Shown: in pieces, positions 21,500 through 46,154 of the stretch
Numbering within the stretch: the first letter of the stretch is position 1
Layout of the letters: every line of letters starts with the position of its first letter
Origin: Acidimicrobiales bacterium
GTDB taxonomy: Bacteria > Actinomycetota > Acidimicrobiia > Acidimicrobiales > SZUA-35
DNA length: 64,000 nt
Assembly: GCA_020629695.1 (NCBI GenBank)
Contig: JAHDCV010000003.1
Coordinates: forward strand, 45,587-109,586
Reading direction: 5' to 3'
Notes under the pieces: model-generated
The model's database searches: none
What the model saw: only the letters and a program-made list of their open reading frames with translations
What the model was told of the DNA's origin: nothing
Program-made: the position numbers and the translations under genes

Positions 21500-22990
21500 G
21501 TGCGTTCCATGGCAGTCGTGATCGCACTGGACGCAGGCACCACCGGAGTTCGAGCCCTCGCCATCGCCGAGGATTCCTCGGTGGTCGGATGGTCGTATCG
21601 GGAATTCACCCAGCACTTCCCGCAACCCGGCTGGGTCGAACACGACGCCACCGAGATCTGGACCTCCATCCAGACCGTGATCGCGGAGCTGATGAGCACC
21701 CTCGATCAGCCGGTGGCGGCGATCGGGATCACCGACCAGCGCGAAACGGTGGTCGCCTGGGACCGTCGCACCGGCGCGCCGAGGCACCGAGCGATCGTCT
21801 GGCAGGATCGTCGGACCGCCGACACCTGCGAGGCCCTCGAGGCGGCGGGCCACCTCGACACGGTCCGGCATCGGACCGGGCTCGTGCTGGATCCGTACTT
21901 CTCGGGCACGAAGTTCGCGTGGTTGCTGAACGAAGGCGGCGTCCAGGTCGACGAACACCTCGCCCTGGGCACGATCGACTCGTGGCTCGTGTGGAAGCTG
22001 ACCGGCGGCGCCGCCCACGTGACCGAACCCTCGAACGCGAGCCGGACGATGCTGTTCGACATCCGGGAGATGGCCTGGTCGGACGAGCTGTGCGATCTGC
22101 TCGGTGTCCCGATGGCCGCGCTGCCCGAGGTCCGACCCACCTCGGGTCGGTTCGGTGAAACCGCCGACACGACCGCCCTCGGCGCCGGCATCCCGATCTC
22201 GGGGATCGCCGGCGACCAGCAAGCGGCGTTGTTCGGTCAGGCCTGCTTCGAGACCGGGATGACCAAGAACACCTACGGCACCGGATCGTTCCTGCTCATG
22301 AACGTCGGCAACGAGTGTCCGGACCCCGTCGACGGGCTCCTCACCACGGTCGGCTGGACCCTCGGGGAAGGACAGGCGCCGACGTATGCCTTCGAGGGGG
22401 CGGTGTTCGTGACCGGCGCCGCCATCCAGTGGCTCCGCGATGGCCTCGGCATCATCGACGAAGCCGCCGAGATCGGCCCGCTCGCGGCGTCGGTTCCCGA
22501 CTCGGGGGACGTCTTCCTCGTGCCGGCGTTCGCCGGGCTCGGCTCCCCCTGGTGGGACCCGTATGCCCGGGGCACGATCGTCGGCATCACCCGGGGTACC
22601 GGCCGAGCGGAGATCGCCCGAGCGACGGTCGAGTCGATGGCGTTCCAGGTGCGCGACCTGGTCGACCTCATGGCGGGAGCGGCCGGACGCCCACCGGCCG
22701 AGCTGCGCGTCGACGGTGGTGCCTCGGTGATGGATCTCCTCCTCCAGATCCAGGCCGATCAACTCGGCGTGACCGTGACCCGGCCGTCGAACCAGGAGAC
22801 CACCGCGCTCGGCGCGGCCTACCTGGCCGGACTGGCCGAGGGGTTCTGGGGCTCACTCGACGAGGTCACGGCCGCATGGGCGGTCGATGCCCGCTTCGCA
22901 CCGACGTCCGAGCGAGCCGCCGCCGACCGGCTCCACGGCCGGTGGCTGCAGGCCGTCGAGCGCAGCCGAGGCTGGGCCCGCACGAGCTGA
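21500..22990 (+). CDS. glpK: Glycerol kinase
   Basis: FGGY family: IALDAGTTGVRA, ITDQRETVVAWD and GIAGDQQAALFGQ. Start at GTG 21500 or ATG 21509. Confidence 0.95.
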   Translation: MRSMAVVIALDAGTTGVRALAIAEDSSVVGWSYREFTQHFPQPGWVEHDATEIWTSIQTVIAELMSTLDQPVAAIGITDQRETVVAWDRRTGAPRHRAIVWQDRRTADTCEALEAAGHLDTVRHRTGLVLDPYFSGTKFAWLLNEGGVQVDEHLALGTIDSWLVWKLTGGAAHVTEPSNASRTMLFDIREMAWSDELCDLLGVPMAALPEVRPTSGRFGETADTTALGAGIPISGIAGDQQAALFGQACFETGMTKNTYGTGSFLLMNVGNECPDPVDGLLTTVGWTLGEGQAPTYAFEGAVFVTGAAIQWLRDGLGIIDEAAEIGPLAASVPDSGDVFLVPAFAGLGSPWWDPYARGTIVGITRGTGRAEIARATVESMAFQVRDLVDLMAGAAGRPPAELRVDGGASVMDLLLQIQADQLGVTVTRPSNQETTALGAAYLAGLAEGFWGSLDEVTAAWAVDARFAPTSERAAADRLHGRWLQAVERSRGWARTS

Positions 22991-23027
22991 GGACCACACA
23001 TCGTCGCATCGTGGTTCCGACGACTCG

Positions 23028-23051
23028 GTTCTTGACCGAGCGGTCAAGAAC
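23028..23051. promoter_or_regulatory. Perfect inverted repeat, candidate TetR operator
   Basis: GTTCTTGACCG-AG-CGGTCAAGAAC has 11-bp perfect arms and a 2-nt spacer and ends 17 nt upstream of the TetR GTG start (23069). It is relatively AT-rich for this genome. Confidence 0.6.
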
Positions 23052-23068
23052 TGCCTACCGTCAACCGC

Positions 23069-23695
23069 GTGTCCACGACGGCAGATGAACGCAAGCTGAC
23101 CCCTCGGGGCAGAGATCGTCGTCAGAGCCTGCTCGCGTACGCCACGAAACGTTTCGCCGAGAACGGCTACCACCCGACGTCCGTGGCCGACATCGTCGAC
23201 GGTGTCGGAGTCGGCAAGGGTGTCTTCTACTGGTACTTCCCGTCGAAGGACGATCTGCTCCGGGAGATCCTGCGGGATTCGATCTACGACCTCCGCAAGA
23301 CCCAACAGGCATCGATCGACGCCGTCGACGGTCCGCTCGACAAACTCGAAGCCGGTGTCCGCGCCTCGATGGCCTGGTCGATGACGCATCCCGAGATCCT
23401 CCGCCTGGTGGCCTTCGCCTGGACCGAGCAGACCTTCGCCGATGCGCTCCGTCGAGGTGAACAGATCCTCGTCGCCGACACGGCCAAGCACCTCCGGGCT
23501 GCGATCGACGCCGGCGACATCGCCGAGGGCGATCCCGAACTCCTCGCCGTCGCGGTGAACGGCATCAGCCGTCAGCTCTCCACACCCGACACCGGACAGG
23601 TGAAGGGTGGCGCGATGACGTCGATCGACGAAGCCCAGATCCAGGAACGCATCGAGCTGGGTGTGCGCATGGTCCTGCACGGCGTCCGTGGCTGA
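23069..23695 (+). CDS. TetR-family transcriptional regulator
   Basis: N-terminal HTH FAENGYHPTSVADIVDGVGVGKGVFYWYFPSKDDLL. Confidence 0.92.
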   Translation: MSTTADERKLTPRGRDRRQSLLAYATKRFAENGYHPTSVADIVDGVGVGKGVFYWYFPSKDDLLREILRDSIYDLRKTQQASIDAVDGPLDKLEAGVRASMAWSMTHPEILRLVAFAWTEQTFADALRRGEQILVADTAKHLRAAIDAGDIAEGDPELLAVAVNGISRQLSTPDTGQVKGGAMTSIDEAQIQERIELGVRMVLHGVRG

Positions 23696-24431
23696 CGACC
23701 AGACCCGAAACGCACCGCCGCAGGCGGTCAGCGTCGACGCACCGCCGCAGGCGGTCATCTTCGACACACCGCCGCAGGCGGTCATCTTCGACAAGGACGG
23801 CACGCTCGTCGACTTCGAGCGGACGTGGTCGTTGCCGTCGGTCCGGGCGATCCGTGCCGCCGCCCACTCCCCCGCCGCAGCGGCGGAGGCAGCCGATGCG
23901 CTCGGGCTCGATCTCGAGACCGGCCGGTTCGCCGACGACTCGTTGTTCCTGCTCGGACCCAACGACGCCTGCGACGACGCGACGCGCCACCTGCTCGACC
24001 TCGTCCGCTATCGGGAGGTGCTCGACGCGGAGTCCGGCCGGGCCGTCGCACCGATGCCGGGGGCCGAGGCGTTGCTCGACCTCCTCGACGGGAGGGGGCT
24101 CCCACGAGCGGTCATGACGAACGACAGCGAGGCCGCCGCGATCCGCCAGCTGACGCGGCTCGGCTGGCTCGATCGGTTCGACGCCGTGCTCGGCTTCGAC
24201 TCCGGTCACGGGGCGAAACCCGACCCGTCCCCGGTGCTCGCCGCCGCTGCCGCGCTGGGAGTGCCCGCCGCCGCGTGTGTGATGGTCGGCGACACCGGTC
24301 ACGACATCGACGCCGGCCGCGCCGCGGGCATGCGGACGATCCTGATCGATCCGGATCGCCGCTACCCCGGACTCGCCGCCGACATCGTCGTCGACGACCT
24401 CGACGGAATCGTGGCCTGGCTCGACTCGTGA
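23688..24431 (+). CDS. HAD-superfamily hydrolase (phosphoglycolate phosphatase-like)
   Basis: Motif I IFDKDGTLVDFE, motif II VMTND, motif III/IV GAKPDP ... MVGDTGHDIDAG. The only in-frame starts are GTG 23688 and GTG 23661, both overlapping the tetR 3' end. The repeat region contains no ATG, GTG or TTG. Confidence 0.85.
   Translation: MADDQTRNAPPQAVSVDAPPQAVIFDTPPQAVIFDKDGTLVDFERTWSLPSVRAIRAAAHSPAAAAEAADALGLDLETGRFADDSLFLLGPNDACDDATRHLLDLVRYREVLDAESGRAVAPMPGAEALLDLLDGRGLPRAVMTNDSEAAAIRQLTRLGWLDRFDAVLGFDSGHGAKPDPSPVLAAAAALGVPAAACVMVGDTGHDIDAGRAAGMRTILIDPDRRYPGLAADIVVDDLDGIVAWLDS
23712..23792 (+). repeat. 3 x 27-bp near-perfect in-frame tandem repeat, each unit with the palindrome ACCGCC-GCA-GGCGGT
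   Basis: The units are 23712-23738, 23739-23765 and 23766-23792. Units 2 and 3 differ at 1 nt; unit 1 differs from unit 2 at 2 nt. They encode (A/T)PPQAV(S/I)(V/F)D three times. Confidence 0.95.
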
Positions 24432-24532
24432 CCGAGGCGGTCACCCGTCGCCGCCAGACGTCGGCGGCGGTGATCGGTCCGGACGTCGAGTCGATCGGCG
24501 AACCGGGACGGCCCACCTGGAACACTGGGGCC

Positions 24533-25351
24533 ATGGGGACCGAGGCCGACACGATCGCTGCGACCGAGCAACCGGTCACGAGGGCTCGGCTGGCCGCCGA
24601 CCTGGCCGAACTCGGCGTCGCCGCCGGCGACCGTGTGGAGGTACACGCGTCGATCTCCTCCCTCGGCTGGGTGCCGGGCGGAGCCCAGACCGTCCTGCTC
24701 GCTCTGCTCGATGCCGTCGGGTCCGCCGGCACGCTGGTGTTCCCGACCCAGACGGGGCAGCTCAGTGATCCCGCCGGATGGGGCGACCCGCCCGTGCCCG
24801 AGCCGTGGATCCCGGTCCTGCGGGCGGAACTCCCCGCCTTCGATCCGGCTCTGACGCCGAGCCGCGGGATGGGGGTGCTGCCCGAAGTCGCCCGATCCCA
24901 TCCCGGGGCGGTTCGCTCCGCCCACCCGTTGCTGTCGTTCGTCGCGATCGGGCCGGACGCCGCGTCGTTGATGGCCCCGCATGCCCTCGCACCCGCCTTC
25001 GGCGAGACGTCGCCACTCGGGCGCCTCACCGCCGCGGGGGCGTCCGTCCTGCTGCTCGGTGTGGACCACGGGGCCTGCACGGCGCTCCACCTCGCCGAGC
25101 ACCGCTCGACCTGGCCGTCGAAACGTGAGGTCGAGGTCTCGGCGCCGATCCTGGATCGAGGCGGTCGACGGGAGTGGGTGACCTGGACCGACCTCGAGCT
25201 CGACGAAGACGACTTCACGAGCCTGGGTGCGGCCTGGATCGCCGACGGGGGCGGCCGTACGGGCCGTGTCGGCGCGGCCGAGGCCCGCCTCGAGCCGATG
25301 CCGGAGCTGGTCGAGTTCGCCGAGGCCTGGATGACGACCAACCGGACCTGA
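24533..25351 (+). CDS. Aminoglycoside N3-acetyltransferase-family protein, AAC(3)-like
   Basis: VEVHASISSLGWVPGGAQTVLLALLDAVGSAGTLVFPTQTG and later HGACTALHLAEH match the AAC(3)/Antibiotic_NAT pattern. An alternative GTG 24428 overlaps the HAD stop (GTGA). Confidence 0.8.
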   Translation: MGTEADTIAATEQPVTRARLAADLAELGVAAGDRVEVHASISSLGWVPGGAQTVLLALLDAVGSAGTLVFPTQTGQLSDPAGWGDPPVPEPWIPVLRAELPAFDPALTPSRGMGVLPEVARSHPGAVRSAHPLLSFVAIGPDAASLMAPHALAPAFGETSPLGRLTAAGASVLLLGVDHGACTALHLAEHRSTWPSKREVEVSAPILDRGGRREWVTWTDLELDEDDFTSLGAAWIADGGGRTGRVGAAEARLEPMPELVEFAEAWMTTNRT

Positions 25352-44873: not shown

Positions 44874-46154
44874 ATGGTTCCCACCAACTCCACCCCCCGC
44901 TGGCGCGACACCGCACTCGGCGCCTCGATCGTCCGACTGCGTGACGGCATCATCGTGCGACACTCCTTCGACCGACTGCTGGTCGCGGCCGCCGTGGCGG
45001 CACTGCTCGCCGTCACCGCCACTCGAGCCGAAGCCGAGCTCACCTCACCGCTCATGCTCGTCATGTTCGGTGCCGGTGCACTCACGATCCTCGGACATCT
45101 GACCCTGGCCCTCGTCGACGAGCTCGGTGCCCGTCGCACACGGACGTCGGTGGCGCTGCTGGCCGACCTCGATCGGCTCGATCTCCACGGGGCCCGGCTT
45201 CGCAGCATGTACCTCCGCCAACGTTCGCTCCGCTCGGTCCGGCTCTCCAATGCCGACCTGCGACGTGCCGATCTCGCCGGCGCCGACCTGACCGACGCGC
45301 GCCTCACCGAGGCGGACCTCTCGGGCGCCAACCTGACCGGAGCCACGCTCGCTGGGGCCAGCCTGTTCCGGATCCGCGGTCGCCAGGCGTGCTTCGACGG
45401 CGCCGATCTGAGCGGCGCCTCGCTCGACCGGGCCGCGCTGCGGGGTGCTCGACTCCACAAGGCGTGCCTGGTCCAGGCATCGCTGCGAGCCTCGGATCTC
45501 CGGCGGGCCGATCTCCGTGAGGCGGAGTTCTGGGGGGCCGATCTCCGCGGCGCCGATCTGCGGGGCGCCGACCTCCGCGAAGCGGACCTCACCGGCGCCA
45601 ACCTCCGCGGCGCCGACCTCCGCGGCGCGAAGATCGACGGCGTCATCGCCGAGCCGTCGCAGGTCCGCTCCGCACGTGGCGGGCAGAACATGCCGGTCGA
45701 GACCGATGACGCCATCCGCCTTCCGACGCCGGTGATCGAACTCCGCCCGCAGCCGGAACCGACGACCGGTTCGACCGCGTCGTCGGAAGCTCGCCGTCGG
45801 GTCGCCGCCGGGGCCATGGCCATGGGCGTCGCCGCGATGGCGGTCGCCGGCGTCTCGCTCGTCGCCCTGCCGACCGACGACGTCGAACCGGTGGTGCTCA
45901 ACACCGTGCAGGAACGCGCCTCGCTCGACATCGTCGGGGAGGGCGCGATCGAGCTCGAGCTGATCAGTGCGAGCGGGACCGAACTCGAGCGAGCGAGACT
46001 GCCGCTCGACCGGGACGTACTCGCTGATCGGCCGGATGTCGTCGCCGTGCGTGCCCGCTCGCTCGAGGGCGACGACATCGAGTGCGAGATCCGTCGCGGC
46101 ACCCGGGTCCACCAGGCCGGACCGGCTGTCGACGTCACCTGCGTGATGCCGTGA
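44874..46154 (+). CDS. Membrane-anchored pentapeptide-repeat protein
   Basis: ATG 44874. Two N-terminal TM helices, about 30 A(D/N)LxG-type pentapeptide repeats, a third TM, and a ~100-aa C-terminal domain. Confidence 0.8.
   Translation: MVPTNSTPRWRDTALGASIVRLRDGIIVRHSFDRLLVAAAVAALLAVTATRAEAELTSPLMLVMFGAGALTILGHLTLALVDELGARRTRTSVALLADLDRLDLHGARLRSMYLRQRSLRSVRLSNADLRRADLAGADLTDARLTEADLSGANLTGATLAGASLFRIRGRQACFDGADLSGASLDRAALRGARLHKACLVQASLRASDLRRADLREAEFWGADLRGADLRGADLREADLTGANLRGADLRGAKIDGVIAEPSQVRSARGGQNMPVETDDAIRLPTPVIELRPQPEPTTGSTASSEARRRVAAGAMAMGVAAMAVAGVSLVALPTDDVEPVVLNTVQERASLDIVGEGAIELELISASGTELERARLPLDRDVLADRPDVVAVRARSLEGDDIECEIRRGTRVHQAGPAVDVTCVMP
45171..45642 (+). repeat. Coding 15-nt periodicity (pentapeptide repeats)
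   Basis: Repeated GCCGATCTCCGCGGC-like units encoding ADLRG/ANLTG, internal to the CDS. Confidence 0.9.

Follow-up and report, generated by a model that had tools for sequence, protein, structure and literature searches.

A probably slippage-driven, old and lineage-specific 27-bp coding minisatellite at the 5′ end of a tetR-coupled HAD hydrolase gene in uncultured Acidimicrobiales

Known coding variable-number tandem repeats (VNTRs) lie mostly in genes for surface or secreted proteins and have many copies. The subject of this report is an array of 27-bp units at the 5′ end of a gene for a HAD-IA hydrolase, which follows a tetR-family gene in a 64,000-nucleotide stretch of an Acidimicrobiales genome (contig JAHDCV010000003.1; the whole stretch is termed the window). 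The array has in common with coding minisatellites, or VNTRs, its head-to-tail units, a unit length that is a multiple of three, an open reading frame (ORF) that is kept, a copy number that varies among relatives and the homogenization of its units, and it belongs with them. Unlike the usual coding VNTRs, it occurs in a cytosolic HAD enzyme, has two to four copies, duplicates beta-strand 1 and the catalytic Asp, abuts an overlapping stop/start junction and has been retained down to 58% protein identity.

Other described systems resemble the array in part. The MIRU of the Mycobacterium tuberculosis senX3-regX3 locus, with three 77-bp units in H37Rv and two 77-bp units plus one 53-bp unit in CDC1551 (PMC3635867; PMC4213456), is likewise an actinobacterial minisatellite of varying copy number between co-oriented operon genes. 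MIRU units, however, are 53 to 77 bp or longer, intergenic and dispersed, whereas those of the array are 27 bp, lie inside an ORF and have no stop or start codon of their own; the core palindrome of the array was found at one locus only within the window. REP sequences, which are small G-C-rich stem-loops and extragenic palindromes (PMC3184786), are also short, sometimes tandem and located after a gene within an operon, with a possible analogy in mRNA stability. They are extragenic with many copies per genome, whereas the hairpins of the array are coding, occupy one locus and come from tandem duplication of gene sequence. PARCEL elements (PMC2996958) are tandem in-frame coding repeats of variable number with dyad-symmetric DNA, as in the array, but encode an amphipathic motif of 25 residues, in ORFs whose function is unknown, often membrane targeted and horizontally spread, and have no kinship in sequence or architecture to the array. 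The array thus fails to show the defining features of MIRU, REP and PARCEL. Template-switch (quasipalindrome) mutagenesis is a mutational mechanism and not an element; it can generate perfect hairpin stems and preserve them (PMC8794818), and at this locus it is a candidate only.

The array occupies positions 23712 to 23792 and consists of three in-frame units, each carrying the palindrome ACCGCC-GCA-GGCGGT. The features concerned are as follows (all on the plus strand).

23712-23738: repeat unit 1, GCACCGCCGCAGGCGGTCAGCGTCGAC, APPQAVSVD; extra copy outside the fold (residues 9 to 17, pLDDT ~50)
23739-23765: repeat unit 2, GCACCGCCGCAGGCGGTCATCTTCGAC, APPQAVIFD; extra copy; first base A in conspecific contigs L171 and L174
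23766-23792: repeat unit 3, ACACCGCCGCAGGCGGTCATCTTCGAC, TPPQAVIFD; supplies the real beta-strand 1 and the motif I nucleophile Asp
23714-23728: palindrome/hairpin 1, ACCGCC-GCA-GGCGGT; stem extendable to ACGC...GCGT, −13.5 kcal/mol
23741-23755: palindrome/hairpin 2, −9.3 kcal/mol
23768-23782: palindrome/hairpin 3, −9.3 kcal/mol
23787-23804: HAD motif I, FDKDGT; invariant columns in a 60-sequence alignment
23688-24431: HAD-IA hydrolase gene, 247 amino acids (aa) from GTG 23688; PF00702, PF13419, TIGR01509

Tandem Repeats Finder reported the array as 23710 to 23792, with a period of 27, 3.1 copies, 94% matches and 0 indels, and its score of 145 was the highest among 73 rows for the window. Two bases differ between units 1 and 2 and one between units 2 and 3. 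The 15-mer ACCGCCGCAGGCGGT was present at 23714, 23741 and 23768 only, in a search of the window that allowed up to 2 mismatches (shuffle expectation, 0.85 matches). The 27 nt of a unit make nine codons. In every ortholog, as in the window, the ORF stays open through the array, which in the window encodes APPQAVSVD-APPQAVIFD-TPPQAVIFD followed by KDGTLVD in the frame of the HAD ORF. The nine codons of a unit cover a Pro-rich linker and beta-strand 1 and end at the catalytic Asp. Only the third unit completes motif I, and the Pfam HAD domains begin there. The array starts 17 nt past the tetR stop (23693 to 23695) and has no in-frame ATG, GTG or TTG. In all these respects (units, peptide, motif, palindromes at 27-bp spacing, 17-nt gap and absence of a start codon) a preliminary description of the locus proved accurate.

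A second perfect palindrome of 10 bp, GCGTCGACGC, which includes a SalI site, spans the junction of units 1 and 2 (23731 to 23740); it does not occur where units 2 and 3 meet. The 27-bp periodicity also weakly carries one step into the gene, with GTCGACTTCGA (VDFE) at 23808 to 23818, exactly 27 bp past the GTCATCTTCGA of the last unit. This echo is probably a coincidence; as a source of the 27-bp period, this partial match was rejected, as slippage there would duplicate KDGT.

A protein search detected only four close HAD relatives, all four with an N-terminal 9-residue repeat.

P0002 (DNA L001): 89% identity to the window protein; 3 copies; unit PPKAVSFD
P0003 (DNA L005): 86% identity; 3 copies; units PPQAGSVD and PPQAVIFD
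P0004 (DNA L003/L004): 62% identity; 2 copies plus a partial copy; unit PPPxAVVFD
P0005 (DNA L002): 58% identity; 4 copies; unit TRPEAAVFD

In the DNA of each, the units were 27 bp long, had the same phase and ended at FD|KDGT, and the gene order FGGY-tetR-HAD-AAC(3) was common to all array-bearing orthologs, which are from uncultured Acidimicrobiales (L002, for example, is an Acidimicrobiales metagenome-assembled genome [MAG]). Copy numbers across the five lineages, including the window, were therefore 2 (plus a partial copy), 3, 3, 3 and 4. The comparison of copy number among relatives that the preliminary description had proposed thus yielded 2, 3, 3 and 4 copies in the four orthologous lineages. 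No repeat was present in the other 115 proteins of the best-hit list or in ∼150 more distant HAD loci (≤47% identity) from genome and metagenome scans, all of which were single copy. Those scans for further repeat-bearing relatives added only L006, which duplicates L002, and a search with the TetR protein yielded only partial contigs and an apparently HAD-less lineage (L167).

Units were more similar within a genome than between genomes, with mean distances of 2.7 and 7.0 positions, respectively. Lineage-specific changes were shared by the units of an array: Lys replaced Gln (CAG to AAG) in all three units of L001, GGT was changed to GGG in two units of L005, and the RPEA version was present in all four units of L002. 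This pattern is one of concerted evolution. The sharing of changes and the within-genome likeness indicate that these lineages inherited the array from a common ancestor and that it has since been homogenized and resized repeatedly, a conclusion that is well supported. Several independent origins at exactly the same phase would be less parsimonious. The preliminary description had offered a very recent triplication by slippage or unequal crossing over, with a copy number that might vary between strains. The mechanism and the variability are upheld by the ortholog counts and by the conspecific contigs described below, but an array common to lineages with 58 to 62% HAD identity and subject to concerted evolution is not very recent.

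Contigs of the same species, with at least 99.7% identity to the window, came from at least 10 sequencing runs and one NCBI MAG, and every one of them ended within or at the edge of the array. Contigs from the left ended before unit 1 (L172 and L173), at the end of unit 1 (L168) or at ...ATCTTCG after unit 1 and a unit starting with ACA (L171 and L174), while contigs from the right began with 0.2, 1 or 2 units. L171 and L174, which are 99.75% identical to the window, thus had an ACA-type unit after unit 1 where the window has a GCA-type unit 2. In a de Bruijn graph simulation with k = 31, which we take to be the k value of the Logan assemblies, the window allele by itself, like a two-copy allele by itself, was assembled straight through the array. 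An allele with at least two identical ACA units reproduced the ends of L171, L174, L176, L180 and L181 to within one base, and the remaining ends fitted mixtures of alleles with different unit numbers or with a different first base in a unit. These results suggest, indirectly, that copy number is probably variable within populations also. In the MAG (GCA_020630995.1, same species), contigs L172 and L179 stop exactly on each side of the array (...CGAAAC and TTCGAC|AAGG...), so that the whole array is missing from that assembly.

The N-terminal peptide has evolved differently from the rest of the enzyme. Between the window and L001, 1 synonymous and 10 nonsynonymous differences were observed in the 35 codons of the N terminus and array, versus 45 and 16 in the other 212 codons (Fisher P = 8 × 10^−5), and the other close pairs gave a similar pattern. 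The excess of nonsynonymous changes points to relaxed constraint on this peptide. The changes lie outside the stem of the palindrome (unit positions 1, 10 and 19 to 22), save for one at the closing pair. Another reading frame or an antisense ORF was rejected as a cause of the odd substitutions, as substitutions elsewhere in the gene clearly follow the HAD frame (45/16) and the variable positions are those outside the stem. An AlphaFold model based on the 60-sequence alignment gave a confident HAD fold (mean predicted local distance difference test score [pLDDT], 91.8) in which strand 1 comprises residues 31 to 34, within unit 3, while residues 1 to 27 had a pLDDT of ∼50 and no secondary structure. 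F34, D35, K36, D37, G38 and T39 were invariant across the 60 homologs. The extra units are therefore predicted to form a disordered N-terminal tail, and the effect of the array at the protein level is most likely little.

Taken together, these data are probably best explained by an old, lineage-specific, in-frame coding minisatellite with a 27-bp unit, driven by slippage and located at the 5′ end of a tetR-coupled HAD-IA phosphatase gene; possibly the array also acts as a set of hairpins that tunes the coupling between tetR and the HAD gene. Slipped-strand mispairing or unequal recombination between units would add, remove and homogenize copies, resulting in 2 to 4 copies across lineages and in units that are more alike within a genome than to their counterparts elsewhere. 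The GC-rich palindrome of each unit probably aids slippage by stabilizing misaligned or hairpin intermediates, and template switching could keep the palindromes perfect. Translation would start at GTG 23688 by termination and reinitiation out of tetR, a step of which we are less confident. The two extra units would then be translated as a disordered tail containing decoy copies of strand 1, with the last unit alone entering the fold and with a probably small effect on the enzyme. The three mRNA hairpins lie 26 nt past the start codon and may have a modest influence on HAD translation or on the stability of the transcript.

Several observations weigh against this explanation. The three closest lineages each have exactly three copies, and all three deep lineages hold at least two despite evident turnover; as a neutral low-copy array should eventually fall to one copy, some selection for the array is plausible. 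Synonymous changes in the array numbered 1 versus an expected 7 to 9 (P of ∼0.002 to 0.005, or ∼0.1 if the units are not independent), which hints at constraint at the nucleotide level. The signal of polymorphism was read from contig ends and not from reads, and the contig breaks could have another cause, namely, loss of coverage at GC-rich hairpins. The start of HAD translation was also derived from sequence conservation.

A GC-rich hairpin can form in every unit of every lineage (−7.5 to −14.1 kcal/mol), with stems of 5 to 8 bp in all three deep lineages, despite differences in the sequence of the palindrome: ACCGCC-GCA-GGCGGT in the window group, CGGCC-CGA-GGCCG in L002 and CACCACCG-CTCG-CGGTGGTG in L003. 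Such conservation speaks for a selected RNA element in which tandem hairpins shortly past the overlap of tetR with the HAD gene would govern how much HAD (and AAC(3)-like product) is made relative to TetR, with copy number as a slow dial; the route could be slowing or blocking of ribosomes after reinitiation or, by analogy with REP stem-loops, a barrier to processing or to 3′ exonucleases. In the register of the window, 90.5% of cells were paired, and a two-sided change was detected at one pair, in one lineage: C-G became G-C at unit positions 5 and 15 in L002, through a Pro-to-Arg change and a synonymous Ala change. The stem of L003 is longer and its register is shifted by 1.5 nt, and the shifted register does not fit the other lineages; unit 1 of L003 retains its stem through G-U pairs, which function in sense RNA only. 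The T of the Val codon has its pairing partner in rare A-ending codons (GCA, ACA and CCA; 3 to 5% usage). When codons were resampled synonymously for the same peptide, the probability of a perfect Watson-Crick stem of this length was 0.009 for the window, ∼0.3 for L002 and 0.0014 for L003. Among 42 high-GC single-copy relatives, a stem of at least 5 bp was present in 1 and a stem of at least 6 bp in none (mean energy, −4.5 kcal/mol), indicating that the hairpin is tied to the repeat state. These findings, together with the depletion of synonymous changes and the retention of at least two copies, favor an RNA element, with the persistence of the array and the retention of the hairpin as the main points. 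However, the same resampling gave folding energies this low with P values of ∼0.08 (window), 0.4 to 0.65 (L002) and 0.02 to 0.05 (L003), so that the energy is not unusual for the peptide and codon usage; taken together, the resampling values indicate that much of the hairpin follows from a PPxAV peptide encoded by GC-rich codons. There was, moreover, only one independent covariation event, and template switching can yield "compensatory" changes of this kind, and could yield three different perfect palindromes, without selection (PMC8794818). The first hairpin does not lie at a fixed distance from the tetR stop (18 nt in the window and 7 nt in L002), the global fold of the whole region is unremarkable (z = −1.4), no Rfam match was detected within 22800 to 24600 at an E value of ≤1, and no terminator-like site was present in 22800 to 24700, the hairpins running into CAUCUUCGAC rather than into a U tract. 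We therefore consider a selected RNA element unlikely, although not to be dismissed. Its most specific form, a copy-number-adjustable cis-regulatory module made from the gene's own first codons, in which 2 to 4 mRNA hairpins set the amounts of HAD and acetyltransferase per TetR, selection keeps at least two copies and slippage provides heritable tuning, is again unlikely and slightly more doubtful. The suggestion in the preliminary description that small RNA hairpins may affect the coupling of tetR to the HAD gene is favored by their presence in every unit and their rarity in single-copy relatives, and is weakened by the codon effect and the single compensatory change. The hairpin could promote slippage, be kept perfect by template switching or be a selected feature.

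A function at the level of the protein, with the PPxAVxFD tail providing a flexible spacer, a pseudo-strand for autoinhibition or a motif for interaction or oligomerization, would fit an array that never leaves the reading frame and is in all cases translated as part of the enzyme, a tail that persists in all lineages, and Pro, Ala and Asp positions that are invariant over all units. The invariant Pro and Ala codons are, however, those that form the hairpin stems and are explained equally well at the DNA or RNA level, while the extra units tolerate nonconservative strand changes (I to S, V to G and F to V) among their 10 nonsynonymous and 1 synonymous differences. With a tail that is predicted to be disordered and with no other HAD homolog having such a tail, this function is very unlikely. 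The preliminary description had also raised a triple binding site for the adjacent TetR, to which one may add any other dimeric regulator. Three identical 15-bp palindromes do adjoin tetR, and the half-site letters ACCG/CGGT recur in a putative operator upstream of that gene (see below), but in the array the gap between ACCG and CGGT is 7 nt, versus 2 nt in the operator. The helix-turn-helix of TetR is 100% identical among the four orthologs and the upstream site is conserved, whereas the repeat palindromes vary in sequence, arm length and spacer, making TetR binding to the array unlikely. The sites also lie inside the downstream ORF with no promoter-like site nearby (in a scan for the sigma-70 consensus only). 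Operators in the array are accordingly highly improbable. Misassembly of a single-copy locus, or of one with a different copy number, would account for the many conspecific contigs that break at the array, a region that is evidently hard to assemble. Nevertheless, at 81 bp the array does not reach the length of typical reads; complete arrays were present in independent assemblies of three other lineages, two or three for each, and were identical (L003 = L004; L005 = L169 = L170); contigs of the same species run into the array from either side and include each of units 1, 2 and 3; and the 3 positions at which the units differ would not be invented by a collapse or expansion. An artefact is thus an almost negligible explanation, and we retain that of a slippage-driven coding minisatellite.

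The array lies among genes in the order FGGY kinase, tetR, HAD and AAC(3)-like acetyltransferase, and the other relevant features are as follows.

23028-23051, strand not applicable: perfect 11+2+11 palindrome of 24 bp, GTTCTTGACCG-AG-CGGTCAAGAAC, an inverted repeat between the FGGY gene and tetR; candidate TetR operator
23069-23695, plus strand: tetR-family regulator gene, 208 aa; PF00440, E = 5.9 × 10^−16; orthologs 84 to 96% identical, with an identical helix-turn-helix region
24428-25351, plus strand: AAC(3)-like N-acetyltransferase gene; PF02522, with NF033082 below its cutoff; third gene of the coupled unit

The HAD protein matched PF00702 with 101.8 bits, PF13419 with 87.2 bits and TIGR01509 with 59 bits (cutoff, 29.4 bits). 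The preliminary description had placed its start inside the 3′ end of tetR, at GTG 23688 or GTG 23661. The former overlaps the tetR stop by 8 nt as GTGGCTGA, an overlap that is kept in L001, L002 and L005, while L003 has a GTGA overlap instead; the latter is GCG in L002. These observations indicate that 23688 is the start, and the HAD protein is most likely translated from there by coupling to tetR, judging by the conservation of the start. The annotated start is corrected accordingly from 23661 to 23688. A local stem, TGGTC...GACCA, at 23670 to 23701 encloses this GTG in the predicted fold and is longer in L002 (GGGTCGTC...GACGACCC); it may mask the HAD start until opened by ribosomes finishing tetR. 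The AAC(3)-like gene probably starts at the GTG that overlaps the HAD stop (GTGA), giving a product of 307 aa, rather than at ATG 24533. The 307-aa product had an exact record on 9 contigs, and the 272-aa version had 0 records. With this start, tetR, HAD and the acetyltransferase would all be linked by overlapping stop and start codons.

The palindrome at 23028 to 23051 is a probable autoregulatory operator of TetR, since the operator candidate, GTTCTTGACCG-NN-CGGTCAAGAAC, has its core, TTGACCG-NN-CGGTCAA, at the same place in L001, L002, L003 and L004. In L167 (a Logan assembly; positions 940 to 1021), the tetR ortholog is 84% identical, GCG replaces the GTG of the HAD start, and beyond the tetR stop the sequence is unrelated and contains an inverted repeat (CCCAGGGTTCAG...CTGAACCGCCCTGGG); a HAD gene appears to be missing from the position downstream of tetR in this lineage. 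Elsewhere in the window, a tandem repeat with a period of 15 and 5 to 6 copies was detected at 45495 to 45642 (a period of 45 was also scored), and it looks like a pentapeptide-repeat coding region.

These analyses indicate that a repeat resembling a fresh accident in a single genome can be an ancient and continuously remodeled feature of one branch of a gene family, and that this locus systematically breaks metagenome assemblies. The array provides a clean natural case of concerted evolution of a minisatellite that duplicates the edge of a catalytic motif in a cytosolic enzyme yet does not destroy it. Were the hairpins functional, the array would also represent a simple, evolvable means of tuning expression at translationally coupled junctions.

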